Assembly (NCBI GenBank): GCA_046328505.1
Contig: JAXLWL010000005.1
Span: 475,666-539,665 of the forward strand
Direction of reading: 5' to 3'
DNA from: Anaerolineae bacterium
GTDB lineage: Bacteria > Chloroflexota > Anaerolineae > Epilineales > JAHCIE01
DNA length: 64,000 nt
Below the pieces are notes generated by a model. It was not told where the DNA came from. It saw nothing but the letters and a program-made list of their open reading frames with translations, and searched no databases. This document shows positions 6,301 to 52,101 of the stretch, in pieces (the stretch's first letter is position 1; every line of letters starts with the position of its first letter). A program made the position numbers and the translations under genes.

Positions 6301-9300
6301 GCCATGGCGCACGAGGTTCCGGCCGTACCCAGCAGGAGCGTCAGCGGCACCGCGACCACTTCGCGGTAGCCCATGTCCATCCGCGAGCCGCCGCCGACCG
6401 GCACATCCGCCAGCGGGTCGGCCGTGTCTACCGCGGGGGACTTGGATTGCAGGCGGTAGTCCGCGTGGCCTGCGTCCACAAACAGCGGGTCGCGGTTGAC
6501 GATGTCGTTGGCGCCCTGGACGAGCGTCGTGCCGGCGCCGACCTGGTAGTTGACGGTGTTCGCGTTGAGCAGATTGTAGTCGTTCAGAATCTGCCCCCCA
6601 GACGCCGTCGACAGCCCCGCCGTGTTGTTGGCCAGGATGTTGTCGCGCACCTCGACCCATGTGCCCGCGCCCGTACTGGACACGCCAGTGCCGGTATTGC
6701 TGACGATGGTGTTGTTGAGGACGAGCCCCGATGAGCTTGTCCCGAAGCTAATGCCGCCCGTGCTGCGCACGACGTTGCGCGTCACAGTGATGAAGCTAGA
6801 CGCGTTGACGACACTCACCCCCGGCTGAGAGCCTGCGCCGGTGAGCGTGAAGCCACTGACTTCGACTTGTGTCGCGCCGCTCACTATGACGGGGGTGGCG
6901 CTGCTGCCGTTGATTGTCGTCTGCTCCGCGCCACTCCCGATGAGACGCACGTGACTCGGGATGGTCAGCCGCTCGCTGTAGGCGCCCGGCCCCACGCCGA
7001 CCGTGACCACCGCGCCCGTTGCCTGGTCCGTCGGGAGCGTGCCGGAGGCGCTGACGGCTTTGACGAACTGCGAAGCGGCGTTCACGGCGTCCTGAATCCT
7101 GGTGAAGGCGTCCACCTGCCAGGTCAAGCCGTCGTTGACACACGTCTGGCAGTAGCCGTCGTCGGCGAAGAACGACGCCTGGACCTGCTGCACGTAGCCG
7201 ATATCCACGCGTGTGCCAGAGCCGGGCGGCACCGGGTCGGCGGGGTCGCCGGCGCCAATGACCGGTGAGTCGGACAGCGGCCGATAGTCGTTCACCGATG
7301 GGTTTGTGAAGAGCGGGTCGCCGAACACGGCGCCCGGTGTTGCTGCGTCGCGGGCGTTGCCGTCCACAACCAGGTCGGCGGCGTTTGCCCAGAACAGGTC
7401 ATACGTGATGGATGGCGCCGATCCGGCCGGACAGCCCTGTGTTACGTAGCGAATTCCCGTGTTCGTGTGGTAGGCGAAGATGGTGTTGCGCACGGCCACC
7501 GTGCTGCACGTTACGTCCAGCCCCGTGCCGCCGCCGATAATTGTGTTGTTGACCACCTCGGCCTGAGTTGCGCTGTCCGCCACGGTGATGGCGGTGACGG
7601 CGTTGCGGATGATGCTTCGATTGACCTGCACGCCCTTTCCGCCGCCGTTGATGAAGATTCCTGTCGCCGTCCCGCCCGCGTCCACCGTCAGCCGCGACAG
7701 ACTGGCGTTGCTGGCGCCTGAGATAGTGACCAGCTTCGTCACCGTGGAGGAGGGACTCTGGACGATGGTGGCGTCAGCGCCCGAGCCGATGACCTGGACG
7801 CCGGTCCGCAGTGTGAGCGCTTCACGATAGACGCCCGGCCCGACCATGATGCGCTGAGCGCCGGCGTTGATCGCCGCCTGGATGCCGGAGAAGGCCGTCG
7901 TGCCCCAGACGTAGCCGTCGTTCGCGCACGAGCTGCAGTAGCTTGGCGAAACGTGAACCGTCGCGGCAGCCGTCAGTGCCTTCGAAGCCAGGAGGCGAGC
8001 GGCTCCGCTGTCGCCTGACGTCGTGCCGACGGGCAGGGACGCCTCGCTGACGTGAGGAACGGGGCCGTAGCTCAGCTCGGTGCGCGCCAGACTACCGGCG
8101 GCGGCATCCTGGGGCACCACCAGCAGGTCCGACGATCGGTCGCAGTTCAGGTCGGCGCCGGCGGCGAAGGGGGTCGACGCGACGCTGGCAACTTTGGTGA
8201 GGGTAGCCGCGGGGCTGGGCGTCGTAGGCAAGTTCGTCGAGCCCATGAAGAGGTAGGCCGCTCCATCGCCCTTGACGATGACGAGGTCGTTCAGGCCATC
8301 GGGCGCTGCCGCGTTGGGTCCGGCGACATCGCCGGGTGCGGCGACGTACCCGGTAGCGCCCATGGTGTAGCCGGAGAAGATACGGTCGCCCGCGTACCCT
8401 TGCGGCCAATCATGCTTGGTGCGCCCAAAGACCAGATGCGCCAGGCCCGCGCTGACAAAGGCAAAGTCCGCGAGCTTGTCACCGTTCACGTCGCCGAGCG
8501 CCGCAAACGAGGCGCCGACCGGCGTCGGCCCTGTGAATGTGCCGGCGCGGTCGGTGAGGGGAGCGAGACTCTGCTGCGCGTGCGTGCTCGATGCCTTCTG
8601 GAAGCTCGGCGAGCCGAGGAAGAGGTACAACGCGGCGCTGCTGCCATGGAAGCTGTTGTTCGGGTCGGCGACGATGAAATCATCAAGACCGTCGCCGTTC
8701 GTGTCGCCGACCCCCATCGCCATGGCGCCATTCGGGTCCAGGGGCAAGACGGCTCCGGCGTCCTTCGTGACGTCCACGGTGCGGCTGCTGAAGTTCTTGC
8801 GACCGAGGACGAGATAGGCGTGGCCGGCCTGGCCCGCCGAGCCTGGCGCGCCGATCAGCATGTCGGCATAGCCGTCGCCGTTCACGTCGCCGGCCGACGC
8901 GACCCACGCGCCAATCGTCCGGCCGGTGGACGTGAGAATCACGCCGCGCGCCGACTGGTTCGAGTTCCGAAGCTGGGTCAGGTCCCAGTCGGCCCCCATC
9001 GGCCCGATTCGGCCGAAGACAACATAGACCACGTCGTTCGTCGGGTCCCCGACGAGAAGGTCGGCGAGGCCGTCGCCGTTGACGTCGCCGGCGGGAGCGA
9101 CGTGGGCGCCGAGCGCGGACGCGCCGGCGGCAACCAGGCTGCTATCCGAGGCGTTGAGAGCCTCGGTGGCCGGTGGCACAGGCCAGCCGCCCGCGCGCCC
9201 CTTGAGAATGAGGACCCGCCCCGTTCCGCCGTTGTAGGCGGGCATGCCGATGGCCGCATCCGCCCGGTTATCCCCGTCCACGTCTCCCAGCCACGTCACA

Positions 9301-12300
9301 GTCGCATTTCGTAGGTCGCCGATCTGCGCCGGCTCGAGAAGGACGGTCGCGCTGATGACACTATCTCGCGTGCCTTGCAGGGGCACGGGACGCGGCGCCA
9401 GCGGAACGTTGGCAAGATCGTCGGCGTGCCCCTGAATTGTGATTGCCTGGCCCGATTTCACGGTCGTCACATAGTTGGTGATGACATCGGCCGGCGCGAC
9501 CACATCTACGACGACGCTGATCGTCTGCGCATTGCCCACCTGACCCAGCGCGTCAATGGCGCGCACCGCGAGCGTGTGCGCGCCGCTGGCGTTCGCGTTC
9601 AGCTTCCAGGGGTAGCTCCAGGACGTCGACGACGGGTTACTTGCCTGGGTGTTCTGCCATACTGACTGCCAGGGCCGATTGTCGATGCTGAGTTGCACAA
9701 CGTCGACGCCGGCGACCTGCGAGATGCCGGAAAGGATGAGGTCCGTTGCCGTGCCGCTCAGCGTCACCGTCGCGCCACCCGTACTGTCAGGCGTCAGCCC
9801 CGTCAGGACCTGCCCGTCCTGCACGCTCGTAATCGCGGCGGCAGGCGCTTTCGTGTCGACGATCACCTGGGAGCTGGCGTCAGGCGAGACTCGCCCGACC
9901 GCGTCGGTCGACCGCGCGCGTAGCGTGTAGACGCCGTCGCTCGGTAGCGCGCTCCACGTCCAGGTCCAGTTGTCAGATCCGTTGGCGGTTTTCGATGTCG
10001 CCCAGTTGTCTGCCGACACTTGAACAGAATTGACCCAGCTTGTGCTGTCTTTCGCGGTGCCGCCGACGACGTACGCCGTGCCGTTGATGGCCTTGCCGCT
10101 CTCCGGGGCCGCAATCGTCGTCTGCGGGCTATCGACGTCGATCTTGACGGTCGCCGCCTGCGTGGCGGTCTTGGCGCTCCCGTCGGTCGGGTCCTTGTAC
10201 GGCAGGCTCACGTTGATGGTCGTCTCCAGAGACTGGGACGCGGAGAGTGCTCGCGCCGAGAACGTCACCCAGACCGTGTTGCCGGGGGTGAACGGACGCG
10301 GGCTGAAGTTCCAATTCATGCAGTTGTTGCCGTCCTGGGTCGAGCCCGTCGGGAACGGTGGAACGTAGGTCCCTCCGCTCGTCACAGCCGGGAATGAGAA
10401 GGCTGTGCTGCTTAGGCAGAGCTGCATGGTGCTAGTGATCGTGGTCGCCGTCGTGTTGGTGACGGTGAACGCGCCGGTCACCGAGGCGTCGGGCTTGACC
10501 AGGGTAATGCTCGACCCACCGTGCGAGACTTGAGGGCCGGTGCTCAAGTCCAGTCTCACCGCCGTGTTCGGCGCCCACGGACTGAGACCAATCGACTTCT
10601 CCTGGAGATCGGTCAGGCCGTCGTGGTCCGAATCTGGGTCGAGCGGGTTGGAGCAGACGTGGACGACGGAGCCGCTGGCGAACTTGACATCCCAGCCGCC
10701 GACGAGTTTCCCGGTCGAGTCGACGTGGCACACCTCGTCGCCGTCCTTGAGGCCGTCGCCGTCGGTGTCGGCCACGTTAATCGACGTGCCGAGGCGATAC
10801 TCCTCAGCGTCCGTCAGGCCGTCGCCGTCGGTGTCCTTCTTGGCCGGGTTAGTCCCCAGCGCCGCCGCGTTCTGCCACTCCCAGCCGTCCGACAGCCCAT
10901 CGCCGTCGGTGTCCCACGCGCTCGCGCTGGTGCCGATGGAGGCTTCCTGGCTGTCGGCGATGCCGTCGCCGTCTTTGTCGCGGTTCGTGACCTGGTTCCA
11001 CGACCAGAGGTTGTCGACGGTGTTGGGCAGGACGTCAAGGTAGATGGGGCTGGTTGCGTCGTTCCACGCATCCTTGTCGTCTGTTGTCGGCCCAGAGCCT
11101 TTGGCCGTGTCGGCGCTGCACGTCCGGGCAAGCGGAACTTTCCAGCACTTCTGGTAGCGCAGCGAGTAGTCGATAATGCTGGTGACATGGATGGCCGCGT
11201 TGCGCACGGCCTGCGCCGGCGTGAACGATGTCGTGATCGTGCTAGGGCAGTGCTTCACGCTGCCGCTCATCCAGCACGTGCCGTTCTGCGTCGTCGGCGT
11301 CGAGTCGCTCGATGCCCAACGGGTGAACGCCGAGCTTTGCTTGACGTCGTCGACCTTGCCACTGCGGCTGTGCGCCCAGTTCCAATGCGACTCGCCCGGG
11401 CCGACCACGATGGTCGTCGTCAGGTGCGTCTGGAAGGTGACCCGGTTGTTGACAACGGTGCCTAGATTGTCGTCCGCCAGCGTGAGGGTCAGGTCGCTGC
11501 TATCGACCGGGTGATTCTCATCCAACTCGGCGTAGAAGGCGACCTTGAGGATGTAATTCGCCAGCCAATCGACAATATGGCTGAAGGTATTGAGCGGGTT
11601 CCAGTCGCCCGTGATCAAGGCCACAAAGAGATACGTCAGCACCGCGACGATGATCTCCACCAGTATGCCAATTTCGGTGGAGGCGACGGCCACCAGCACA
11701 AGGGAGAGGACAAGCGTGAACACGATGACGATGGTCGAGGCAATCGCGCTGGCTAACTCCATGTCCGTTTGGAGATGGGATACGCTGTCGGAGTAGCCGT
11801 GGAAGCTGCTCCAGACCATGACCAGCGCGACGACGGCGACGATGATGGCCACGCCCACTGCGATCTTGCCCAGGCTCTTGGAACCTGAAGCCGCTGCCTC
11901 CGCGGCCCGAGTCACACCGGTCGCAGCGTCCGACAGGCGCAGCGCCTCTTTGATCGCGCCATAGGCGACGCGCACGCCCCACTTGATGCCCTGGCCGACG
12001 AGACGAATCACCGGCAGAACCTGTATGAAGACGGCGCCCGCTGCCGCAATGAACGTGGCTATCCCCTGGCTTGTTGGGGTCGCCTGGTTGAACTGCGAGG
12101 CGGCCCACTCGCGCCAGCCGGCGACTGCCCCGTCTAGGGCGATGGTGGTCGCCAGGTCGTTCAGGTGATATGCTGCCTGGACGTAGCCGGGCAGCTTCGG
12201 CTGGGATGGCTGCGAGAACCTGGCATAGAGTGCGGCGTCGTCGGCCTTGGGGCCGACCAGCGTCTGGCCGTTGACCGCCACGTAGTTGACCTGCCCGCCA

Positions 12301-44389: not shown

Positions 44390-44521
44390 GCTGTGAGTGG
44401 TCCCGCGTTGAGTCAAAGTGTCTGGTAACATAAGTATAGTCCCGAATACGCTGGCCGTGTACCACGACACCCTCTCTCCCACGCGGGGAGAGAGGGATGT
44501 CATCACGTGGAAAGGACTCTT

Positions 44522-45301
44522 CTACGCGCCCGGCGTCGCGGTCGGCGCGACCGGGGTCTGCTGCGGGCCGCCGGGGAAGCCATGCCCGCCGGGGCCACCA
44601 GGGCCGCCATCGAAGTGGCCCGGGCCGCGCAGCATGTCGTCCAGACTCTGGCTCGCGGCCTCCTGATCGATCTGCTGCTTGATCTGGGTCGCCTGGTCAG
44701 AGGTCAGGCGGCCTGCCGTCACCGCTGCATCCACCTCGGCCTTCTTGGCGGCGACGATGGCCGCCTTAACGGTGTCCGCGCTTACGCCCTTGGACTGGGC
44801 AATGGCGCTCAGGGTCTGGCCCGACTGCAGGGCCGTTTGCAGGTCAGCCGTCGTCATGCCGAGAGCCTTGGCCGCTGCGTCGAACACGGCCGGGCCGCCG
44901 ATGGGGCCGCCAGGGCCGCCGGGGCCACCGCGGCCGGGGCCGCCACCATGGCCGAATGGCAGGCCCTGGCCAGGCTGCCACTGGTCAACGCGGGAGTTAA
45001 TCTGAGTCGCCTGATCCTGAGTGATGTGCCCGGCCTGCAGCTCGCTAGCCACGACATCCTTGGCCGCCGCCTTGACCGCCGTGGTGAGCTGGTCCACCGA
45101 AATGCCCAGCTTGCCGGCGAGCGCCGTCCAGAACGACTGGTCCAGGGTGTTGATCGGGGGCTGGCCGGTCGGAGCGGTGGGGGCGGTTGGGGTAGGCGAC
45201 TGCGCGTTCGCCACGCCAACCGCGCGGCCCACGCCGAACAACCCGATCACCAGCGCCAGCGCCGCAACGCCGGCCAAAACTACGTTCTTAACTCGCTTCA
45301 T
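44522..45301 (-). CDS. Secreted LTxxQ-motif protein, CpxP/Spy/ZraP-like periplasmic stress protein (tentative), with an internal duplication and Gly/Pro/His-rich linkers
   Basis: GGAGA RBS 7 nt upstream. Signal peptide MKRVKNVVLAGVAALALVIGLFGVGRAVGVANA. Two helical repeats each carry an [LI]T[SQ]DQATQI motif (ITQDQATQI; LTSDQATQIKQQ). They are followed by GGPGRGGPGGPGGP and GGPGGPGGHGFPGGP tracts. It is the first gene of the RR-HK operon. Confidence 0.5.
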   Translation of the reverse strand: MKRVKNVVLAGVAALALVIGLFGVGRAVGVANAQSPTPTAPTAPTGQPPINTLDQSFWTALAGKLGISVDQLTTAVKAAAKDVVASELQAGHITQDQATQINSRVDQWQPGQGLPFGHGGGPGRGGPGGPGGPIGGPAVFDAAAKALGMTTADLQTALQSGQTLSAIAQSKGVSADTVKAAIVAAKKAEVDAAVTAGRLTSDQATQIKQQIDQEAASQSLDDMLRGPGHFDGGPGGPGGHGFPGGPQQTPVAPTATPGA

Positions 45302-45363
45302 CTTCTTTCTCCTTGTACGCTTCGTGTGCTATCGTCGTGCGCTTCACCGCCCGACTTGCCCCT

Positions 45364-45399
45364 AGTGTAGCAAGGAGATTTTCAGACATTGTGAAGAAC
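45364..45399 (-). promoter_or_regulatory. Conserved promoter module, copy 3: GTTCTTCACAATGTCTGAAAATC, 4 nt, TGC-TACACT
   Basis: Read from the sequence. It ends about 62 nt upstream of the ATG at 45301. Confidence 0.5.
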
Positions 45400-45604: not shown

Positions 45605-46063
45605 GTGAGTACGAATGAAGTACACGAGATGCAACTCGTGTCAACACATCCCTCGGGCGCCGAGGAGTGGCACTGTCCCACATGTGGTCGCCGCGTGCTC
45701 TTGCAGTCGCAGCTCGACTATCAGCGAATTACCCTGGAGCGTGGTGACGTCTACGCTCTGGCCTGGGGAGCGGAGACTGGCGTGCTGGTGGCGGAGAAGA
45801 CGGTACTCGTTGTAGGAGATGCAACGGCCAGCCATCGCGGCAACAAACTGCCCAGTGTGATGCCTTCTGACGAGGCAGAGTATGCCGGACTCGAGCCGGG
45901 TGAATCGTCTTCTGCCTTAACCGGTAGGCTGAACAACGGAGTACCGGAGGCAGAAGACGAAGATGTTGCCAACCATCAGACGCCGCTGACAGCCGAAATG
46001 CGGCGCTGGCTAACCGAGGCCGGGTTCGAATTGTGGTGGACCAGACCGCTATCGCAGTTGTAA
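45605..46063 (+). CDS. Hypothetical protein with CPTCG zinc-ribbon-like motif
   Basis: GTG start with an AGGAGG RBS 8 nt upstream. 152 aa, contains WHCPTCGRRV. Confidence 0.5.
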   Translation: MSTNEVHEMQLVSTHPSGAEEWHCPTCGRRVLLQSQLDYQRITLERGDVYALAWGAETGVLVAEKTVLVVGDATASHRGNKLPSVMPSDEAEYAGLEPGESSSALTGRLNNGVPEAEDEDVANHQTPLTAEMRRWLTEAGFELWWTRPLSQL

Positions 46064-46084
46064 GTAGCTCGACAGTCGTAGCGC

Positions 46085-47005
46085 CTATGCAACTTCGAGG
46101 AGCGGGCCAAGGCTGACCCCGACAACCTCCGCGTCCCGGACGATCACCGCGGCTACTATTTGGTAGGTGCCTGGATTCGGAAGCTCGAACTGGGCCTCGT
46201 TCGTATAGTTTGTCGCCATTAGGTCCAAGAGTTGCTGACTAGAAGCCAGCACGGTTACGGCCTGGTGGGCCGTGTCGAACGCCAGGAAATGCACGATGCA
46301 CGGTACCCGGCTCGTGTTTGCGAGGTAGAGTCCGTCCGCGCGGAGGCTGAAATCGAGTTCGGCATACATCGCCGGCTCCGGATGTCCTGCTGCCTGTGAT
46401 CCGTTGTTGGACACGAACCCTATTCTCGGCGCTCCCATCTCCATTTCGAGCTGGGCGATGCCTTCCGTGTCCACTCTTGGCGGACCCGCTTCGACGAGTG
46501 GAGATGGGAGATTCGGTCGAAGAGATCCCGTGTCATGCTCCGGGGCCAAGGTCTTTGTACCGGCATTCTCGGCAATAGCGCCTATCAGGTGGCGTTCATC
46601 CCATCCGGCCCACGAGACGTCCTCTCCGCTCTGGGAGTGAACCAGGCGCGTTCGCCTGACGTTGTCGTTGTCGTCCAACAGAAGCTCGACGACGAATGTG
46701 GCGTAGCGCTGCCGACTCTCCACGAAGCTTCCCTCCGTCGACCCTTCACTAGCCTTCGAAGCCAGCCGCTGCGCCTGTTCAGGCCATTCCTGCTTGGCTA
46801 TGCGTTCCTCGGAGATCAGGGGCTGGCTGCCGAGTAGAGTAGCAATGTCGGCCGGGGTCATCGCAGCAAGCTGGGCGTAAGTTAGGACACCGCGCTCGTG
46901 CAGCCAGCTATCGATAGAAGGCCCAATGCCACGGATGATCCTGAAATCATCTCCCGCCCGGTCAACCATCTTGCGTTCTTCGTCCGGCAAGTCTTGTCTT
47001 GACAC
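46085..47005 (-). CDS. Hypothetical protein with N-terminal helix-hairpin-helix (DUF4332-like) motif
   Basis: DFRIIRGIGPSIDSWLHERGVLTYAQLAAMTPADIATLL is HhH-like. Last gene of a same-strand cluster. Confidence 0.55.
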   Translation of the reverse strand: MSRQDLPDEERKMVDRAGDDFRIIRGIGPSIDSWLHERGVLTYAQLAAMTPADIATLLGSQPLISEERIAKQEWPEQAQRLASKASEGSTEGSFVESRQRYATFVVELLLDDNDNVRRTRLVHSQSGEDVSWAGWDERHLIGAIAENAGTKTLAPEHDTGSLRPNLPSPLVEAGPPRVDTEGIAQLEMEMGAPRIGFVSNNGSQAAGHPEPAMYAELDFSLRADGLYLANTSRVPCIVHFLAFDTAHQAVTVLASSQQLLDLMATNYTNEAQFELPNPGTYQIVAAVIVRDAEVVGVSLGPLLEVA

Positions 47006-47058
47006 AGTCTCGGCTCCTTGCCTCTACGCGGTCTCCGTTGCCGAACGACTAGCGGGGG

Positions 47059-47301
47059 TTACTGAAGTCTATAGTCGCCGGAGATGACACGAACAGCAAT
47101 GCCATCAATTTCCTTTGGCCACTGTTCGTCTGCTTCAGCGCCACCTTTCACATGCACGCGAAGCACAGGTACCTGCTCCTCGCCCTCACCTTCAGCTCCT
47201 ATGTCGACCATTGACACGCGCGGATCGGTGAACACCAGACGCACCAGCTTGTCGCGCGCTTGTTCAGCTTTGTCCATCTGCGGCAGTCCACTGTGGCGCA
47301 T
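47059..47301 (-). CDS. Small protein (80 aa) homologous to the N-terminal domain of the adjacent S1 protease
   Basis: PRVSMVDIGAEGEGEEQVPVLRVHVKGG aligns with PNVTLVDVGMPFKDGKLVEGKLAIRVHVRNK in the protease N-terminus. It lies 29 nt downstream of the protease gene. Confidence 0.45.
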   Translation of the reverse strand: MRHSGLPQMDKAEQARDKLVRLVFTDPRVSMVDIGAEGEGEEQVPVLRVHVKGGAEADEQWPKEIDGIAVRVISGDYRLQ

Positions 47302-47330
47302 TTGAGCTTCCTCTCGTTGAGACCAACTCC

Positions 47331-48416
47331 TTAGGCAATCGCTGCTTCCATCTCTGTAGCTTGCAGTACAACCGCCGGGTCTGTGACGATCGCGACGTCA
47401 AGCGCACTGAGGATAGGGTTAATGTCCATCGCCAGCGCCCGGCCGCTGATTCGGTCGCCTGCGAAGTGCAGCCCGAGCGCTTCCTTGCTGGCATCCTCCA
47501 GGTGAAGCGAGCCGGAGTCACCGGGTTGAGTCACATAGGGCTCGCCAGCGAGGGGATCGATCGAGATAACGTGCTGAATCGTCCATGGTATCCCATCATA
47601 TGGGATGCGCAACTGTCCACCAATTCCCGTGATGCGTCCCCGTGTTACCTGAGTCGTGCGGCCCGCCTTGGCTACGATCATGCCTACTGCGGGAGTTCCC
47701 ACGCCGGAGACCGGCCCGAGACCGAGCTGATCGTTCTTGATGGGCCGCGAGCCATTGAGGGTTGCTACGGCAGCATCCAATCCCGCCTTCATTGCGTCCC
47801 GTGTCCACGACGCGATCGTATCGCCGGCATCACCGCCGTCGAGGCGCCCCGGCTGGCAGATAGGAGCATTAGCCAGCGTCCGCCAGCTCCGAGCGAGTAC
47901 GTGCCAGTTGCTAAGAATCATGGGTGCGCCGTCTGGGTCAACGACGAGGCAGCCGAGGGTACCCGCCGAGTTGGCGAAGACTTGAGAGATGCTAATGCCT
48001 CCTTCGAGCACGGCGAACCGCGACCTGGGGTTGGCCGACGTTCGGCTTGTCGCCGACAGCCCATTTCCGGCGCTAAGAGTGTATCGTGCCTCAATCACAT
48101 CAGTAGGGATGCCTCTGATGTCGGCCGGAACAGGACTCGTGAGCCCGCGCGCAACCGCCTCTTCGAGCGCAGAGCCGCGTAGTTTGTTGCGCACGTGCAC
48201 TCTAATCGCCAGCTTGCCTTCGACAAGTTTCCCATCCTTGAACGGCATGCCAACATCCACGAGCGTGACATTGGGCTCATACACGCGATTGTGTGCATCC
48301 TCAAGTGCGGACCATAGCGCGCGCACATCAGAAGTACTGAAAGACATCGCAGACCTCCTGTGGGGTATGATCTCGATCAGGTGGCCAGGGTCCGTCCCGG
48401 CCACCTGATCAGTCAA
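47331..48416 (-). CDS. Chymotrypsin-fold (S1) serine protease with an N-terminal extra domain and no signal peptide
   Basis: Catalytic motifs are SNWHVL (His) and GDSGS (Ser), plus the GCLVVDPDGAPMIL core. The N-terminal 120 aa is non-protease and lacks a hydrophobic leader. Confidence 0.8.
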   Translation of the reverse strand: MTDQVAGTDPGHLIEIIPHRRSAMSFSTSDVRALWSALEDAHNRVYEPNVTLVDVGMPFKDGKLVEGKLAIRVHVRNKLRGSALEEAVARGLTSPVPADIRGIPTDVIEARYTLSAGNGLSATSRTSANPRSRFAVLEGGISISQVFANSAGTLGCLVVDPDGAPMILSNWHVLARSWRTLANAPICQPGRLDGGDAGDTIASWTRDAMKAGLDAAVATLNGSRPIKNDQLGLGPVSGVGTPAVGMIVAKAGRTTQVTRGRITGIGGQLRIPYDGIPWTIQHVISIDPLAGEPYVTQPGDSGSLHLEDASKEALGLHFAGDRISGRALAMDINPILSALDVAIVTDPAVVLQATEMEAAIA

Positions 48417-48444
48417 GGCAACTTGTTCCCACGCGTCGTTGTGA

Positions 48445-49122
48445 CTACGGCTGTACCTGGAACAGAACCGGCCGGCGGTCAGGGTTCTCGGTGCTGAAGC
48501 CGAGATAATAGGCCAGCCAGTCGAAGTCCAGATCCAGCGTCCAGGCAGAGTAGCCGCCGAAGAACGAGGGGATCCCGCCCATGCCGGGGATGTTGGCCGT
48601 GATGTTCATCTCATGCAAGCCGGCAGTGGTGGGTGAGAAGGCCTGGACATCGACGTAGAACTCGGAGCCGAAAATGCCGCCACCAGGGCTAAGAGGAATA
48701 GCCCCTGTGAGCTGACACGCAGGCTCGGCGAGAGTCCAGGTGGTCTTGTTCCCGGTCGAGTACGTCAGATCGACGGTGAGATTGAAGGTCTCGAGGACGG
48801 CTTTCGGGCTCGTAGGACCCGGCAGCATCAGCGCCGGATTCAGGACGAGAACTGTGATGACGTACGCCGTGTCGCCGATGTCGACCACAGCAGCCGGTGA
48901 AAGCGCTGGCGGCGCGAACTGGATGGGGCCAATGGCCATGAGGTCCCACCAGAACTCCGGCTGGGCGGCCTCAGTACCCGTGGCGCTAAGCTCTTGGAGC
49001 TTCGAGTTCAATTTGGCAGCGAACACCTGCCGCACGGCCTCGGTCGACACAGCGGGCTTTTCCGCGGCCTTGGCGGCCGCAACGACGGGCGCGGCACTTC
49101 GCGTGCGGGTAACAGCGGACAT
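48445..49122 (-). CDS. Hypothetical protein
   Basis: Start at MSAVTRTRS (ATG about 49122, AAGGAGAG RBS 9 nt upstream). The Cys-rich upstream extension of the ORF call is rejected. It lies between the SARP-like regulator and the protease. Confidence 0.5.
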   Translation of the reverse strand: MSAVTRTRSAAPVVAAAKAAEKPAVSTEAVRQVFAAKLNSKLQELSATGTEAAQPEFWWDLMAIGPIQFAPPALSPAAVVDIGDTAYVITVLVLNPALMLPGPTSPKAVLETFNLTVDLTYSTGNKTTWTLAEPACQLTGAIPLSPGGGIFGSEFYVDVQAFSPTTAGLHEMNITANIPGMGGIPSFFGGYSAWTLDLDFDWLAYYLGFSTENPDRRPVLFQVQP

Positions 49123-49278
49123 AGCTCTTCTCTCCTTTGCTGAGTACCTGACTGAGTTAGTTGGACAAGAGCAGCAGCGGCGCCACTGATGCTCAAACCT
49201 GGAGCCATCGTAGCACTCGCTGCTTAATTGCCGCTTTACCGAACACTTAATCAAGGCTGACTGCGAAATTAAGTCTTG

Positions 49279-52101
49279 TCAGGCGAGGCGACTAGCCCGA
49301 ATCTGCCCGTATAGACTAATGGTCGCAGGTTCTGGTTCTACATCCAACTCGGCGCGGAGTATTTCAACACATGTCTGATACTGCTGTACTGCCAGGCGTT
49401 GTTGCCCCAACCGACTGTAGCAGAGCATGAGCCGCCGATGGGCATCTTCTCGACATCCGTCACGCGACAACATGAGCTTGCACAGCCGGACACTTTCGCC
49501 ATAGTCTCCGCGCCCGAAGTACATTTGGCTCAGGGTATCGAGCGTATCCAAGTAGGTGGAGCGTAGACGAACGCGGTCAACGATGGGCCACTCCTCGTAC
49601 ATGTCGTCCGCCAGGTAATCGCCGTTGTAGACACTAATCGCTGCTTCATACTCAGCTCTCGCCAATTCGATGACCCCCACGCGTTCCAGGGATTGCCCAG
49701 CTTCCACATGCCGCTCGAACTCCTCCACATCCAGCCATATCTTGAGGTCGGAGCTTATTCGATAGCCTCCGCTTTCAAAGATGACAATGGCAACATCTGT
49801 CGCGGTACTCAAGTCCTTTCGCAGCCCATGCAGAGCCACATTGAGATTGTTGCGGCCAGCATGTGCGTCGGCGTGGGGCCAGAACAGGTCAACGAGCAGC
49901 TCTCGCGGGGTCGTTGTCTGCCTATGGGCGAGCAGATACTTGAAGACGGCCTGCCCGCGTTGGCTTCGCCACTTGGTAATAGGCATATCGTCGACTGAGG
50001 CTACGAAAGATCCAAGAAGGTGGACACTAAGCGTCACGTCTGTCTGGGGGTCTGTCTCCGAGGGGATCTTCGGCGGCCACAGTTCCAGGACTGACGCATC
50101 CCCTTCCTGTTTCGCCCGAGCGTTCTCTTCCAGAGTGGTCTTCTCCATCACTGCACCTGTGGGAAGAAGAAGTGGTTCGCTCATCGGCAAGGCGGGCAAC
50201 TCTTGGAGTCCGCTAAGTGCTGGCTGACTATTCCTCTCAAGATCAACACTTGCTTCATTAGGGCGTCGCCGCAGTCCTAAAGCCCCTAGGACCGTGCTCC
50301 AAAAGCCTTCGGGCCTCTCCGTCGTTGGCAATGGCACTAGCTGAGGCGCCGACAGCTTCACTGACATTGGCGTGCGCAACCAGCCGCGCGTCTCCAATAG
50401 GAACTCATGGTTCAAGGGCGGCAGGCGCAGGAGGTTGTGAAGTTTTTCTGCAAGCTCTTGCTCTGCATGTTCTAGTGCGAAATAAGCTTGCCGATACATC
50501 TCTCTACGGAGGCGGAGTTCCCGCTGACTAAGCATGAGCTGCTTTGTCACCTTAAGCAACTCTGCCATGAAAGGGTCAGCACTCTCATCACAGGTCGAGG
50601 CCGCTTGTGCTAGATACCCTAGTCCCTCATCGACACTCCCAACTTCGGCCGCAAGACAGGCCAATTGCCAGTTGGCCCAACCCGTGTACCAGGTCAGCGT
50701 ACTGGCTTTGGCGGTTGACCGGGCTAGAAGAGCTCGCTCCTCGGCGTAAGCGAGATCGTTGTCCCATGCAGCAAGCGCACTTTCAGCCAGAAGGCTCTGG
50801 CAGGCGCCTTCGGGGTCTTGTCTCGCCATGAATTCGTCGGCTGCTTCAGAAAATGCGCGACACGCCTCATATGCGCTTCCCAGGACGGCTGCAATCTCTC
50901 CACGTGTATACAACAGCCAGGGAGTGCATTTCAGAGTCGCGACGGGTAGATCGGCTATCCAGGTACTCAGACTTGACCACGCCCCCAACGCCATTAGCTT
51001 ATCCGTGGCGGCGCCAACAACTTTGGCGGCGCTGTCGTAGTCATCTATGCTCAGATAGATTTGAAGGGCCCGGTCTACGGCATCGGCTTTAGCCAGATCA
51101 TCCGCTGCCTCGCGCAAGCCCGCACGGTCGGTTTCCACCGAGTGAGGAATGATCGCGCGAATCGGCGCTCGCCACACATCTCGGGTGTGGAACCAGCCGT
51201 CGTCGAGAGGCTGCAGGCACGGGTAGTCGGTGATTGTCGGGCTATGGAGGCTTCCCTCCAAGGCATTCGCGTGAACATACTCGATACGAGTCGCAAGCGC
51301 GAAGGACTTCTGCGCTGGCGGATCAAGGAGGGAATACCAGGCCGACGCGACGCGGCGCAAGAGGTCGTCATGGCGCCCGGCGCGTTTCACGATTTGCTGG
51401 ATAAGGTCAGGCCCGAGCGAGCGCGTGGCGTTGCTGAGCGTGAAGAGAACCTCCGCGCGGCCGTCTGTCAGCTCTGCAATCCGCTGCCACAGATTGCTGG
51501 CGAGGCCAACGACGAGGTTGTGCCCCCAACGTTCGGCAGCGCTCGGATCGACATAGACGTCGCGGACGCCGCGAATGATTGTGTACTCTGGCAGGGCATT
51601 TCGTGCCGGTGCTTTCTGCGCGGTCAGGACGAGCGAAATGCTTGGCGGGAGTTCGGGCACGAGATGCGATGTCAGAAGAGGTAGAATTTGCGAACGCTCC
51701 CCCAGCGCGTCGAGACATTCCAGGACGATGGCGCACGGTGTCGGCAACGCATCGGCCAGCTCTTGCCCGAGCGCGGTGTAGAGGGCCGGCCATCCGGACG
51801 TTGGCCCGGGGCTGCGCCGCATCTCAGCGAGAGTCTTTGCGCCACACGCTGGATTGACGCGCCTTACGGAGTCGATAAGGGAGAGCAGGAACATCGCGGG
51901 ATCGCGATCCGCTTCCTCCAGGCGAAGCCACACGGCTGGCCATCCTCGCTCGTTGAGGATGGAGGCAAGGCCTTCCATGAGCAGGTAGCCTGGTGGCGCT
52001 ACGAAGAGGGTGAGCCGCGAATTCAGTGTACGGTCCCAGACCAGTTGAGGAACAGTTGCGTCTGTGACATGGGGAGCCGTGGACTTTGCGGAAAAGGGCA
52101 T
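49279..52101 (-). CDS. Large regulator with reversed SARP architecture: degenerate MalT/STAND-like N-terminus, TPR-like helical region, C-terminal OmpR-type wHTH plus BTAD
   Basis: C-terminus is LLGSFVASVDDMPITKWRSQRGQAVFKYLLAHRQTTTPRELLVDLFWPH...BTAD helices...LAVQQYQTCVEILRAELDVEPEPATISLYGQI. N-terminus is VPQLVWDRTLNSRLTLFVAPPGYLLMEGLASIL, where the STAND P-loop position has lost GKT. Start chosen at MPFSAK (about 52101). The ORF call begins at a TTG upstream. Confidence 0.7.
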   Translation of the reverse strand: MPFSAKSTAPHVTDATVPQLVWDRTLNSRLTLFVAPPGYLLMEGLASILNERGWPAVWLRLEEADRDPAMFLLSLIDSVRRVNPACGAKTLAEMRRSPGPTSGWPALYTALGQELADALPTPCAIVLECLDALGERSQILPLLTSHLVPELPPSISLVLTAQKAPARNALPEYTIIRGVRDVYVDPSAAERWGHNLVVGLASNLWQRIAELTDGRAEVLFTLSNATRSLGPDLIQQIVKRAGRHDDLLRRVASAWYSLLDPPAQKSFALATRIEYVHANALEGSLHSPTITDYPCLQPLDDGWFHTRDVWRAPIRAIIPHSVETDRAGLREAADDLAKADAVDRALQIYLSIDDYDSAAKVVGAATDKLMALGAWSSLSTWIADLPVATLKCTPWLLYTRGEIAAVLGSAYEACRAFSEAADEFMARQDPEGACQSLLAESALAAWDNDLAYAEERALLARSTAKASTLTWYTGWANWQLACLAAEVGSVDEGLGYLAQAASTCDESADPFMAELLKVTKQLMLSQRELRLRREMYRQAYFALEHAEQELAEKLHNLLRLPPLNHEFLLETRGWLRTPMSVKLSAPQLVPLPTTERPEGFWSTVLGALGLRRRPNEASVDLERNSQPALSGLQELPALPMSEPLLLPTGAVMEKTTLEENARAKQEGDASVLELWPPKIPSETDPQTDVTLSVHLLGSFVASVDDMPITKWRSQRGQAVFKYLLAHRQTTTPRELLVDLFWPHADAHAGRNNLNVALHGLRKDLSTATDVAIVIFESGGYRISSDLKIWLDVEEFERHVEAGQSLERVGVIELARAEYEAAISVYNGDYLADDMYEEWPIVDRVRLRSTYLDTLDTLSQMYFGRGDYGESVRLCKLMLSRDGCREDAHRRLMLCYSRLGQQRLAVQQYQTCVEILRAELDVEPEPATISLYGQIRASRLA

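Follow-up and report, generated by a model that had tools for sequence, protein, structure and literature searches.

A conserved cassette encoding a reversed-SARP regulator and a NAL1-like serine protease in an Anaerolineae genome

The stretch of DNA analysed in the present work (the window) comprises 64,000 nucleotides of a contig from an Anaerolineae bacterium, and between positions 46085 and 52101 it carries five genes on the minus strand, which are accompanied by a predicted promoter, an intergenic hairpin and a possible accessory gene on the opposite strand. These features are given below, with the basis of each assignment in parentheses.

49279..52101, minus strand: REG, a 940-aa activator (Pfam, NCBIfam AfsR, the AfsR structure PDB 8hvr, hhalign to MalT)
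49207..49272, minus strand: predicted SARP-dependent promoter of the HYP operon (phased direct repeats and a -10-like hexamer)
48445..49122, minus strand: HYP, a 225-aa cytoplasmic protein, the putative pro-protein and chief product of its operon (alignment; 69 of 78 protease loci)
48375..48410, minus strand: hairpin between HYP and PROT, a putative attenuator or 3'-end stabiliser (RNAfold)
47331..48347, minus strand: PROT, a 338-aa cytoplasmic NAL1-like serine protease (triad, AF2, Foldseek, phrog_20754)
47059..47301, minus strand: SMALL, an 80-aa free paralogue of the PROT N-domain (BLASTP, hhalign)
46085..47005, minus strand: HHH, a 306-aa protein (NCBIfam; HHH_5, Cdd1 and DUF4332; PDB profile matches)
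45605..46063, plus strand: possible accessory gene, 152 aa (tblastn neighbour in 10 of 80 loci)

The five same-strand genes had been proposed in a sequence-only reading of the window, and all five minus-strand open reading frames were confirmed at their coordinates, with one start codon reassigned as described below. That reading had also made co-occurrence in other genomes its own test, and the genes do prove to be a real conserved cassette: the same gene order is found in other genomes, and order and strand are kept across phyla. All-versus-all clustering of protease-seeded loci recovered HYP in 69 of 78 and a downstream HHH-family protein in 46 of 78, while tblastn across 80 loci detected HYP in 62, SMALL in 53, the SARP regulator (REG) in 35 and HHH in 27. 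The collinear cassette occurs in at least eight bacterial phyla, the groups, as assigned from record titles, being Chloroflexota, Cyanobacteria, Acidobacteriota, Actinomycetota, Proteobacteria, Calditrichota, KSB1 and Deinococcales. One HYP homologue (P0134, at loci L088 and L089) has no adjoining protease. In a crude Kyte-Doolittle scan all of the cassette proteins appear cytoplasmic.

The genes had been read as a candidate operon with spacings of 24-53 nt. The four-gene operon hyp-prot-small-hhh stands, but the regulator is not its fifth member, and the spacing is wrong for the junction between REG and HYP, which is a gap of 156 nt holding a predicted SARP-type promoter, with REG as a unit of its own ahead of it. 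Repeats of the TTAAG type lie at 49272-49268 (TTAAT), 49250-49246, 49238-49234 (TAAAG) and 49227-49223, and the last heptamer, TTAAGCA, is followed after 8 bp by the -10-like hexamer TACGAT (49212-49207). The layout resembles that of SARP target promoters, for which the rule is direct heptamer repeats phased at 11 bp with the 3' repeat 8 bp from the -10 (PMC10936776). The pattern of a repeat, 8 bp and TANNNT has a single match in the 64-kb window, which falls in the REG-HYP gap, and none in 100 shuffles. When 59 related loci were scored for three to four direct repeats with 11-bp spacing and a last heptamer exactly 8 bp from TANNNT, the layout was found in 17, against 0 of 5,900 shuffles, and REG was detected upstream in 14 of those 17. 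The repeats are of the TTAAG/CTAAG type in the window and at loci L070, L062 and L036 and of the TTGAG (TTGAGC) type elsewhere; those of the window are weaker than in other loci, one being a degenerate TAAAG and the third lying 1 nt out of phase. Because cognate SARP-type repeats sit in the promoter of the next gene, the locus is, to judge from these signals, an activator gene with a four-gene target operon and not one five-gene operon.

The identification of REG as a reversed-SARP regulator holds. Its C-terminus consists in Pfam of Trans_reg_C (an OmpR-type wHTH, residues 717-782) and BTAD (790-935) and matches the SARP domain of AfsR (PDB 8hvr) with E=2e-10, and the protein matches NCBIfam AfsR. 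The N-terminal ~400 residues are collinear with E. coli MalT from residue 1 (hhalign 93.6%, E=2e-7), and the start at 52101 agrees with the N-termini of four full-length homologues. The resulting order is a MalT-type STAND module (~1-400), a TPR-like helical region, a low-complexity linker, the wHTH and BTAD. REG thus has the wHTH+BTAD, STAND module and TPR-like repeats of AfsR, a large SARP (SARP-NOD-TPR), but in the reverse order, sensor first and SARP module last, and with a MalT-type STAND module that has lost Walker A. With MalT/LAL-type activators it shares a STAND N-terminus, helical repeats and a DNA-binding output domain, which is a SARP module in REG and a LuxR-type HTH in those activators; REG does not keep their Walker A GKT or their Walker B DD. 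In the alignment 'APPGYLLME' stands opposite 'SPAGYGKTT' of MalT, so that the GK[ST] of Walker A is lost, and LE takes the place of DD in Walker B; because of these two changes the module is unlikely to be an NTPase. Of the STAND-like NTPase scaffold that had been proposed, the STAND module therefore survives as a probably inactive one, and with cognate repeats in the promoter of the next gene the output of REG looks to be transcription; REG does not look like a protein scaffold that activates PROT. Nor is the module a regular part of the cassette, since it is present in REG of the window but in only about 5 of 35 regulator-bearing loci; unlike AfsR, most cassette-linked homologues do not have it, and the shorter ones (10 of 10) consist of an N-terminal region of 160-480 aa followed by a C-terminal wHTH+BTAD. 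The regulator appears to be exchangeable, because for about half of the cassettes no SARP gene was detected in the vicinity and in one divergent clade a CHASE2-sigma54 activator replaces it. The setting also differs from that of other SARPs, the cassette being mostly outside Actinomycetota and the predicted target being a protease operon, not a biosynthetic cluster.

PROT is a real gene, but the start that had been assigned to it at 48416, a TTG, gives way to the ATG at 48347, which is preceded by an AGGAGG ribosome-binding site and is most likely the true start. The HYP-PROT gap is therefore 97 nt and contains the hairpin, and in 62 other loci the corresponding gap has a median of 98 nt. The description of PROT as an S1 protease with a non-protease N-domain is borne out by an N-terminal ABD-like domain (~1-95) followed by an S1 chymotrypsin fold, whose triad H149, D191 and S278 is invariant in 84 homologues, and by an AF2 model with a pLDDT of 92; PROT is taken to be catalytically competent in the explanation proposed below. 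It also agrees with the earlier description that neither the window protein nor any of 78 homologues showed a hydrophobic N-terminus in the crude Kyte-Doolittle scan, which is not a SignalP prediction.

The closest full-length structural match of PROT is rice NARROW LEAF 1 (NAL1; PDB 7y77, 8pml, 8hau and others), which accounts for all of the top 33 Foldseek matches (E ~1e-17, TM 0.65-0.70, full length), while the sequence identity is only 16-19% and the profile comparison gives a borderline E=1.3e-3 across the N-domain. Both proteins are intracellular, and in both a small beta/alpha domain (in NAL1 the ATP-binding domain, 89-172) leads immediately into a chymotrypsin-fold domain that carries a His/Asp/Ser triad. 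The N-terminal domain of NAL1 (1-88), with the beta-strand for hexamer formation, is missing from PROT, and in the profile alignment, compared by inspection, the positions of the ATP-contacting R122 and K139 are basic in PROT (K37 and K55) whereas R120 and K123 stand opposite Pro and Asp. NAL1 is a single eukaryotic gene, whereas PROT is an operon member beside a free copy of its own N-domain. The only sequence-level PDB matches for the single PROT sequence are alpha-lytic protease and streptogrisin (MEROPS S1E), whose protease domain is similar (TM ~0.8 relative to the target); these enzymes, however, are secreted and have a large N-terminal pro-region which is a folding catalyst, whereas PROT shows no signal peptide, and the match of its N-domain is to the ATP-binding domain of NAL1 and not to that pro-region.

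HYP begins with a variable helical extension, about 50 aa long, which a conserved junction, E51-x-A-(E/Q)-P55-x-x-W-W-(D/N), joins to a beta-rich core. Across the family the extension ranges from 28 to 76 aa with 21% identity, whereas the core is conserved at 38%, and in the junction E51 is kept in 41 of 44 sequences and P55 in 35 of 44, as is the WW pair. A cut directly before P55 would put proline at P1', an unfavourable site. Foldseek returns generic beta-sandwich matches only, and because the AF2 model is poor (pLDDT 48) the description of the core as an Ig-like sandwich is tentative. The family is small, with 198 representatives among 1.84 billion proteins, and HYP has no match in Pfam, NCBIfam, PADLOC or PHROG; in one member, P0166, the middle domain of HHH is fused at the N-terminus, a link between HYP and HHH. 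The best reading of this layout, we infer, is that HYP is a pro-protein processed by PROT.

The hairpin that follows HYP has a 16-bp stem (RNAfold) and a 6-nt loop, with an inverted repeat (I14) of 15-nt arms, an MFE of -43 kcal/mol and z=-4.45, and equivalent hairpins with z<-2 are found in 49 of 59 loci (83%; median z -4.2). Several loci have a U-tract after the hairpin; the window copy has none. The hairpin may act as an attenuator, as a processing site or as a stabiliser, and it would putatively uncouple the abundance of HYP from that of the downstream genes; with a strong hairpin behind the gene in 83% of loci, HYP is probably produced in excess.

That the 80-aa open reading frame is homologous to the N-domain of PROT is supported both by BLASTP (E=6e-4) and by hhalign between the two family profiles (98% probability, E=1.3e-13, PROT residues 4-94). 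SMALL keeps the RVHV strand and is without the helix that comes next in PROT; it is the next gene after the protease in 53 of 80 loci and is missing from about one third. A putative role for it is that of a regulator of protease assembly or activity. The helix-hairpin-helix assignment of the last gene is likewise sound: HHH begins with an (HhH)2/DUF4332-like domain (~14-85; NCBIfam E=8e-11 for the window protein), HHH_5 is found in 22 of the 38 family members (HHH_5, Cdd1 and DUF4332 in 20-22), and the PDB profile matches are to NusA AR-type and DUF4332-type domains. The middle of HHH is taken up by a small conserved domain (~100-145); beyond a variable linker, the C-terminus is formed by a beta domain, likewise conserved, whose motif is P-x-G-x-Y-Q-[LI]...G-P-x-L-x-V.

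The best explanation of these observations, to which we give about an even chance, is a horizontally spread cassette of two transcription units, in which REG switches on the operon and PROT processes HYP. The sensor region of REG, here a P-loop-less MalT-like STAND module and TPR-like repeats ahead of the wHTH+BTAD, would respond to a signal, upon which REG would bind the phased TT(G/A)AG(C) heptamers overlapping the -35 in the 156-nt gap and, in the manner of AfsR, recruit RNA polymerase. The operon hyp-prot-small-hhh would thereby be switched on, with HYP, encoded by the first gene and followed by the hairpin, made in excess as a cytoplasmic pro-protein whose variable helical extension is joined to the core at E-x-A-E-P-x-x-W-W. 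The trimers of NAL1 form through contacts between its ATP-binding and protease domains (PMC12012508), and by analogy PROT may assemble through contacts between its N-domain and protease domain; it would then process HYP, and possibly HHH, at or near the junction and release the mature core. SMALL may dock on the protease domain to modulate assembly or activity, and HHH, by way of its HhH domain and related beta domain, may be a tether or partner for the product. Among known systems, lantibiotic and bacteriocin precursor-protease operons have a dedicated activator and a product gene placed first with a hairpin next, and they share with gasdermin systems and with the cassette a protease gene beside a protein with a dispensable-looking extension. 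The lantibiotic or bacteriocin precursor, however, is a short peptide, whereas HYP is a folded protein of 225 aa, and the cassette has no modification enzymes or exporter; the inhibitory peptide of bacterial gasdermin is C-terminal, whereas the HYP extension is N-terminal, and HYP differs from these systems in its lack of a PADLOC match and in its low-confidence beta-sandwich model. The binding of REG to these repeats, the status of HYP as substrate, the functions of SMALL and HHH and the purpose that the cassette serves in the cell are what we infer from the observed gene content, homologies, conserved synteny, promoter architecture and hairpin.

A rather unlikely alternative is that the cassette serves regulated proteolysis, with HYP and SMALL as adaptors or inhibitors and with targets elsewhere in the proteome, such as transcription factors, as with plant NAL1. 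NAL1 forms a cage in which transcriptional regulators are degraded (PMC12012508), the assembly domain is mimicked by SMALL, and an HhH protein could direct the protease to targets on the nucleoid. For an adaptor or inhibitor, however, the large excess over the protease that the hairpin after HYP suggests would be less economical than for a substrate, even if stoichiometric inhibitors do exist, and the variable extension and conserved junction of HYP look like a propeptide.

The sequence-only reading had seen a resemblance to defence modules, and an analogy with abortive infection is possible, but as an explanation, with the STAND/TPR regulator sensing infection and the protease and its partners damaging the cell or the phage, it is improbable. 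The patchy phylogenetic distribution and a G+C content of 0.59-0.60 against 0.64-0.69 in the flanks point to horizontal transfer; fusions to effector-type domains occur among relatives of the protease, with Endonuclease_NS in Tsukamurella and with an SLT lytic transglycosylase in a KSB1-like clade; some divergent cassettes have TPR-CHAT proteins in their vicinity; and the phage family phrog_20754, annotated 'protease' and matched by PROT with E=7e-41, has the full PROT fold, as do two BFVD viral proteins. Against this, the cassette corresponds to no known anti-phage system, with no PADLOC match for any of the six proteins, and the flanks of 19 loci hold no consistent defence content, with generic ABC/AAA and scattered single matches only. 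The neighbours in the window are housekeeping genes (a two-component system, an ABC exporter and metabolic genes), and phage and plasmid collections are essentially devoid of the cassette. The STAND module, moreover, is without Walker A and missing from most loci, and the predicted output of the regulator, a promoter, would be slow compared with known STAND systems, which act at the protein level.

Equally improbable is that HYP is a protoxin matured by the protease, as in bacteriocin-like systems or programmed lysis, and released or acting with lytic functions. The order of an abundant product, a hairpin and then enzymes recalls the colicin-type succession of toxin gene, leaky terminator and accessory genes; the operon of the divergent clade ends in the protease-SLT fusion, which would cleave peptidoglycan; protease-nuclease fusions are known elsewhere; and the dedicated activator is like that of SARP-controlled antibiotic clusters. 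HYP, however, is similar to no known toxin or pore-former, and the cassette of the window has no immunity-gene candidate, secretion signal, holin, transporter, SLT domain or nuclease domain.

Fortuitous adjacency, or spurious open reading frames in G+C-rich DNA, which the lack of a database family (Pfam, PADLOC, NCBIfam) for HYP, SMALL and most of HHH might suggest, is vanishingly improbable and refuted by synteny, the genes keeping their order and strand in dozens of loci of different phyla between which the proteins are 25-50% identical; in addition, a ribosome-binding site precedes each start codon, and the NCBI annotation of the source MAG lists both HYP and PROT as genes.

The possible accessory protein has no Pfam, PADLOC or NCBIfam match. 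Its gene converges on the end of the operon and encodes a zinc-ribbon-like motif, SGAEEW-x-CP-x-CGRR, and its homologues adjoin the cassette, on either side, in 10 of 80 loci (tblastn), those that can be assigned being from Chloroflexota.

The conserved unit in this part of the window is an operon of four genes, HYP-PROT-SMALL-HHH, which together with the gene of a SARP-type regulator, REG, makes up what is here called the cassette. The features concerned are the following.

45605-46063, plus strand: 152-aa ORF that converges on the end of the operon and carries a conserved SGAEEW-x-CP-x-CGRR motif
46085..47005, minus strand: HHH, a helix-hairpin-helix protein of 306 aa
47059..47301, minus strand: SMALL, an 80-aa paralogue of the N-domain of PROT
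47331..48347, minus strand: PROT, an S1 protease resembling rice NARROW LEAF 1 (NAL1)
48445..49122, minus strand: HYP, a 225-aa protein and first gene of the operon
49279..52101, minus strand: REG, the SARP-type regulator

The five minus-strand ORFs proposed by the sequence-only reading are present at the coordinates it gave them, and a purine-rich ribosome-binding site lies before each of them, but the uniform spacing of 24-53 nt that it described does not hold, because 156 nt separate the stop of REG (49279) from the start of HYP (49122). The start of PROT is most likely the ATG at 48347, since an AGGAGG site lies upstream of this codon and the N-terminal helix which it retains is conserved in homologues. 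With this start the gap between HYP and PROT is 97 nt, compared to a median of 98 nt in 62 related loci, while the alternative TTG start at 48416 would place a hairpin with a 16-bp stem (48375-48410) within the coding sequence. PROT and HYP are 100% identical to the NCBI hypothetical proteins U0822_22340 and U0822_22345, respectively. The deposited U0822_22340 call is 317 aa long and drops 21 residues of the conserved N-terminal helix, which is seen both in homologues and in a confident AF2 model (helix 5-23).

Conservation was evaluated in 80 genomic loci encoding relatives of PROT at 38-54% identity, assigned by record title to Chloroflexota, Cyanobacteria, Acidobacteriota, Actinomycetota, Gamma- and Betaproteobacteria, Calditrichaceae, KSB1, Deinococcales and others. 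By tblastn, HYP is present in 62 of these loci, SMALL in 53, REG in 35 and HHH in 27, and all-vs-all clustering of ORFs places HYP in 69 and HHH in 46 of 78 loci. The gene order is always HYP-PROT-SMALL-HHH on one strand, and REG lies upstream on the same strand in 27 of the 35 loci which have it and otherwise downstream on the opposite strand. Co-occurrence in other genomes, on which the sequence-only reading had staked its proposal, is thus borne out with order and strand conserved, and the grouping is real and much stronger than chance. A search seeded with HYP led to a divergent clade with the layout HYP-PROT-HHH-like-PROT2::SLT, and to one further HYP homologue that has no adjacent protease. 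Because the regulator beside the divergent clade is a CHASE2-sigma54 activator instead of a SARP, it is the four-gene core that is stable, and the regulator can be exchanged. Duplications occur at several loci: L011 has two tandem copies of HYP (8143-8865 and about 9240-9797), L020 has two genes of the HHH family, and L001 and L002, from one MAG, are near-identical cassettes on different contigs.

The regulator was correctly described as a SARP with its domains reversed. An OmpR-type winged helix (Trans_reg_C, 717-782, E=7e-5, just under the Pfam cut-off) is followed directly by BTAD (790-935, E=2e-26), residues 667-931 match the AfsR SARP domain 8hvr in a PDB search (E=2e-10), and both the wHTH and BTAD are found in 5/5 long family members and 10/10 short homologues. 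The module is not N-terminal with additional domains C-terminal to it; it forms the last 230 residues of the 940-aa protein, and it is likewise placed in every cassette-linked homologue examined. The N-terminal 660 residues match no Pfam or PDB entry and no Pfam NOD model, and a PDB profile search with them returned only designed TPR proteins, so that their relationship to MalT emerged only from direct profile comparison by hhalign, in which a six-sequence full-length REG profile aligned with E. coli MalT over 384 columns, collinear from residue 1 (93.6%, E=2e-7). The N-terminus is therefore homologous to the nucleotide-binding oligomerisation module of the MalT clade of STAND proteins, and neither the Walker A consensus GxxxxGK[ST] nor the Walker B consensus hhhhD[DE] is found in it: MalT ‘SPAGYGKTT’ corresponds to REG ‘APPGYLLME’ and MalT ‘VIDDYH’ to REG ‘VLECLD’, GK[ST] is present in 0/6 family members, and the only invariant residue in the Walker A segment is the Gly before Tyr/His. 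We predict from these residues that the STAND module of REG is of MalT type and NTPase-dead. The locus consists of an activator gene and a four-gene operon, and does not look like the proposed complex on a STAND-NTPase scaffold. REG can be likened to the large SARP and MalT-type activators as a signal-transducing activator, from which it differs in that its SARP module is not N-terminal and its P-loop is missing. The MalT-like module occurs in only about 5 of the 35 regulators; all ten of the shorter regulators have a region of 160-480 aa, TPR-like in two of them, before the C-terminal wHTH and BTAD.

SARP target promoters carry direct repeats at intervals of 11 or 22 bp, the most 3' of which lies 8 bp from the -10 element (PMC10936776), and the region upstream of HYP has this form as a pattern of sequence. 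Three to four direct repeats of (A/T)TTGAG(C/T) are found there at 11-bp spacing, with a three-repeat score of at least 15/18 in 18/59 loci compared to 0/2,950 shuffles. A stricter test, for three repeats in phase of which the last heptamer is followed after exactly 8 bp by a TANNNT hexamer, is satisfied by 17/59 loci and 0/5,900 shuffles, and REG was detected upstream in 14 of these 17. The repeats in the window are of the TTAAG type, as they are in L070, whose REG has the C-terminus closest to that of the window protein (49% identity). The window promoter reads TTAAGCA-GCGAGTGC-TACGAT, preceded at 11 bp by a degenerate TAAAG and, 12 bp before that, by TTAAG. The pattern ‘TWRAG-N6-TTRAG-N10-TANNNT’ matches the minus strand at 49207-49238 and nowhere else in the 64-kb window, and it matches 0/100 shuffles. 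Because a promoter pattern of SARP type sits upstream of HYP, we infer that the four genes form a transcription unit of their own, for which REG serves as dedicated activator. Generic scans for sigma70 promoters and terminators were uninformative.

Many loci carry a palindrome, TGAGCGCTCA, which is nearly perfect and is situated about 10-45 nt downstream of the predicted -10 hexamer; it is found in the REG-HYP intergenic regions of L004, L006, L020, L022, L041, L052 and L067, among others, and the window has only a partial palindrome, TTTGAGCATCA, near 49185-49195. The palindrome is composed of two copies of the SARP-box core TGAGC in inverted orientation. As it has no loop it is unlikely to form an RNA hairpin, and a second regulator, or REG or HHH itself, may use it as an operator.

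PROT has no Pfam match, and its family comprises more than 2,400 clusters at E<=1e-3. H149, D191 and S278 are invariant in 84 family sequences, and the AF2 model based on these sequences (pLDDT 92) has a chymotrypsin fold with a His-Asp-Ser triad. The 33 best Foldseek matches of the model in the PDB are all rice NAL1 (E about 1e-17, TM 0.65-0.70, ~375 columns), whereas alpha-lytic and streptogrisin proteases match over the protease domain only; full-length comparison with the NAL1 constructs 88-458 gives TM values of 0.65-0.68 normalised to the query and 0.64-0.66 to the target. At the sequence level the PROT profile reaches NAL1 at E=1.3e-3, in an alignment that spans the N-domain and continues into the His motif, and that sets PROT residues 33-156 on the NAL1 stretch with the FRIRKG ATP-binding motif (R120-K123). 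NAL1 residues 89-172 are an ATP-binding domain according to the authors of its structure, and form the trimer interface with the neighbouring protease domain (PMC12012508). PROT likewise has a domain of this type directly N-terminal to its protease domain. Of the NAL1 residues that contact ATP (R120, R122, K123 and K139), the profile alignment pairs K139 with the nearly invariant K55 and R122 with the basic K37, and it pairs R120 and K123 with Pro and Asp. By modelled fold and domain order PROT belongs with NAL1, from which it differs in length (338 aa compared to 582 aa) and in lacking a counterpart of residues 1-88; the hexameric cage of NAL1 consists of two stacked trimers which use the N-terminal strand of the NTD. 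No paper discussing bacterial homologues of NAL1 was found in the searched literature. Since Cyanobacteria carry the family and its closest match in structure comes from a plant, entry of NAL1 into plants from a cyanobacterial or other bacterial source is a possibility. The cyanobacterial MAG loci with family members are L003, L008, L051 and L065.

More distant members of the family have other architectures and settings. NAL1-like proteases with a C-terminal DNA/RNA non-specific endonuclease domain (393-606) or SLT lytic transglycosylase domain (435-536) are encoded at L081:5881-7779 (a Tsukamurella plasmid, WP_068739888.1), L086:6703-8460, L085 and L090; the Endonuclease_NS fusion is that of Tsukamurella, and similarly annotated records exist in Rhizobium and Streptomyces. 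Many stand-alone family members bear the JGI name ‘endonuclease G’, which has probably been carried over from such protease-nuclease fusions. Distant paralogues (~30% identity) are found on L082 (Clostridium novyi pCN2) and on C. botulinum group III plasmids, where a single plasmid may have as many as 16 of them, frequently arranged in tandem with small hypothetical genes, a TPR protein and a sigma-factor regulator, in what looks like a paralogue expansion of this protease type.

Two of the other partners are much as the sequence-only reading had described them. SMALL is a free-standing paralogue of the protease N-domain: it matches PROT by BLASTP at E=6e-4, and a profile of 38 SMALL homologues matches the PROT profile over PROT residues 4-94 (98%, E=1.3e-13). 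HHH has tandem helix-hairpin-helix motifs in an N-terminal (HhH)2/DUF4332-type domain, followed by a short middle domain, a variable linker and a conserved C-terminal beta domain. Its residues 14-85 match the HhH tails of L21, NuoE and PhaH (NCBIfam, E=8e-11), 38 members of the family match HHH_5 (22/38), DUF4332 (20/38) and Cdd1 (20/38), and PDB profile matches include 8yy9_O (E=1e-12) and NusA AR (E about 1e-3). Homology between the C-terminal domain of HHH and the core of HYP was considered and set aside, hhalign giving only 55%.

The window HYP protein has no match in Pfam, NCBIfam, PADLOC or PHROGs, and Pfam searches of 44 members gave nothing consistent. A word-indexed search with the single sequence returned only the protein itself and a profile search returned 15 proteins, which limited the depth of the alignment for structure prediction; the AF2 model from these 15 sequences (pLDDT 48) has a long helix and then a beta-sandwich. 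Foldseek matched this model only to generic beta-sandwiches (CARDB/filamin, E>1e-3), so no specific fold match was accepted, and a resemblance to gp130 fibronectin was rejected because the PDB profile matches were insignificant. Exhaustive profile search of 1.84 billion proteins yielded 198 representatives of the family, nearly all stand-alone proteins of 200-290 aa, in which an N-terminal extension of 28-76 aa with 21% pairwise identity precedes a core with 38% identity. The junction between the two has the pattern E51 (41/44 sequences)-x-A-(E)-P55-x-x-W-W-(D/N)...G-P-x-Q. The sole exception to the stand-alone form is P0166, a metagenomic representative of 451 aa whose N-terminal 180 residues hold the HHH middle domain (BLASTP against window HHH 103-145, E=2e-6); it represents a fusion, and thereby a functional link between HHH and HYP, unless two genes were merged in the call.

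The spacer between HYP and PROT contains a very stable stem-loop in 49/59 loci (z<-2; median z -4.2), the window hairpin having an MFE of -43 kcal/mol and z=-4.45, and in several loci the stem is followed by a U-tract, as in an intrinsic terminator. Operons for precursors or structural proteins usually consist of an abundant first gene, a leaky terminator or stabilising hairpin, and then the processing enzymes. Because the hairpin follows the first gene in this manner and the anatomy of HYP resembles that of a protein with a propeptide, we propose HYP as the substrate of PROT, with a likelihood that falls a little short of even. The operon logic is similar to that of known precursor-plus-protease clusters, with the difference that the ‘precursor’ here is a folded 225-aa protein of an orphan family. 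A simple Kyte-Doolittle scan revealed no hydrophobic N-terminus or membrane-spanning segment in any of the five proteins or their homologues, which for PROT upholds the description of a protease without a secretion signal.

A pro-protein maturation system of a kind not previously recognised, built around prokaryotic relatives of NAL1, could combine these elements as follows. The dedicated activator would turn on mass production of HYP, a new cytoplasmic beta-sandwich protein; the cage protease would activate HYP by removing its N-terminal helix; SMALL, a free ‘decoy’ copy of the protease assembly domain, would gate PROT; and mature HYP and its HhH partner would have the nucleoid or the cell envelope as their site of action, with cell death, lysis or dormancy as possible outcomes. 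Taken jointly these steps form a tentative scheme, unlikely to be right in every part.

That the cassette is instead a toxin or lysis system in its own right we consider improbable. A role in conflict or lysis would suit its patchy distribution and its G+C below that of the flanks, the fusion of distant protease relatives to Endonuclease_NS or SLT lytic transglycosylase, the TPR-CHAT proteins near the divergent clade, and the presence of the full fold in phage family phrog_20754 (E=7e-41) and two viral proteins. The defence module proposed by the sequence-only reading is a quite doubtful alternative, positive evidence for phage defence being absent: REG, HYP, PROT, SMALL, HHH and the downstream ORF have no match in PADLOC-DB v2 at E<=0.1, and the pair is not one of gasdermin plus protease, since HYP has no PADLOC match and its low-confidence model shows a helix followed by a beta-sandwich. 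In the flanks of 19 loci, with 103 ORFs, the PADLOC matches that recur are six members of mad3 and mad8, the same count as that of Pfam ABC-transporter ATPases in the set, and the rest are scattered singles; defence content of the flanks was rejected because these matches are only of generic ABC/AAA type. Searches of the literature on NAL1 with phage defence, and on DUF4332 with proteases, returned nothing relevant, and the earlier statement that no named system matches stands, in that none has the composition of the cassette and no paper describing it was found in the searched literature. An origin in a mobile element was dismissed: GenBank phages gave no match to the cassette, plasmids gave no HYP, IMG/VR holds only two distant relatives, and neither a tRNA gene nor an integrase nor a flanking long repeat was found in the window. 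The window has a G+C of 0.60-0.70 that falls to 0.59-0.60 between 46 and 52 kb, and the low value across the cassette (46000-52000), compared to 0.64-0.69 on either flank, fits horizontal acquisition.

If the pro-protein maturation scheme holds, the so-called plant-specific NAL1 would have its origin in bacteria, possibly in Cyanobacteria, and would gain an ancestral substrate. In rice, NAL1 is a protease of agronomic importance, and the structure of its fold is a recent result. A large family of bacterial proteins that share its two-domain core, encoded in a conserved operon beside a proposed substrate and a free copy of the assembly domain, offers a tractable bacterial model for the assembly and regulation of proteases of this type. 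Maturation of HYP by PROT, gated by SMALL, is a specific hypothesis, with cleavage predicted at the E-x-A-E-P-x-x-WW junction of an orphan family which is yet conserved across at least eight phyla. The promoters suggest that phased repeats 8 bp from the -10 element work well beyond actinomycete antibiotic clusters, and with regulators of reversed domain order.

The convergent 152-aa ORF has no family match, and its motif looks like a zinc ribbon; homologues adjoin the cassette on either side in 10/80 loci, and those with informative taxonomy are Chloroflexota. Other neighbours in the window encode a two-component system, an ABC exporter with a HlyD-type partner, a spermidine-synthase-like protein, Lit, a phosphoglycerate mutase and glycosidases. 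Two long ORFs overlap on opposite strands, at 44522-45301 (minus), which matches DUF2680 (E=6e-9), and at 44507-45370 (plus), which has no match, and the minus-strand ORF is probably the real gene of the pair.
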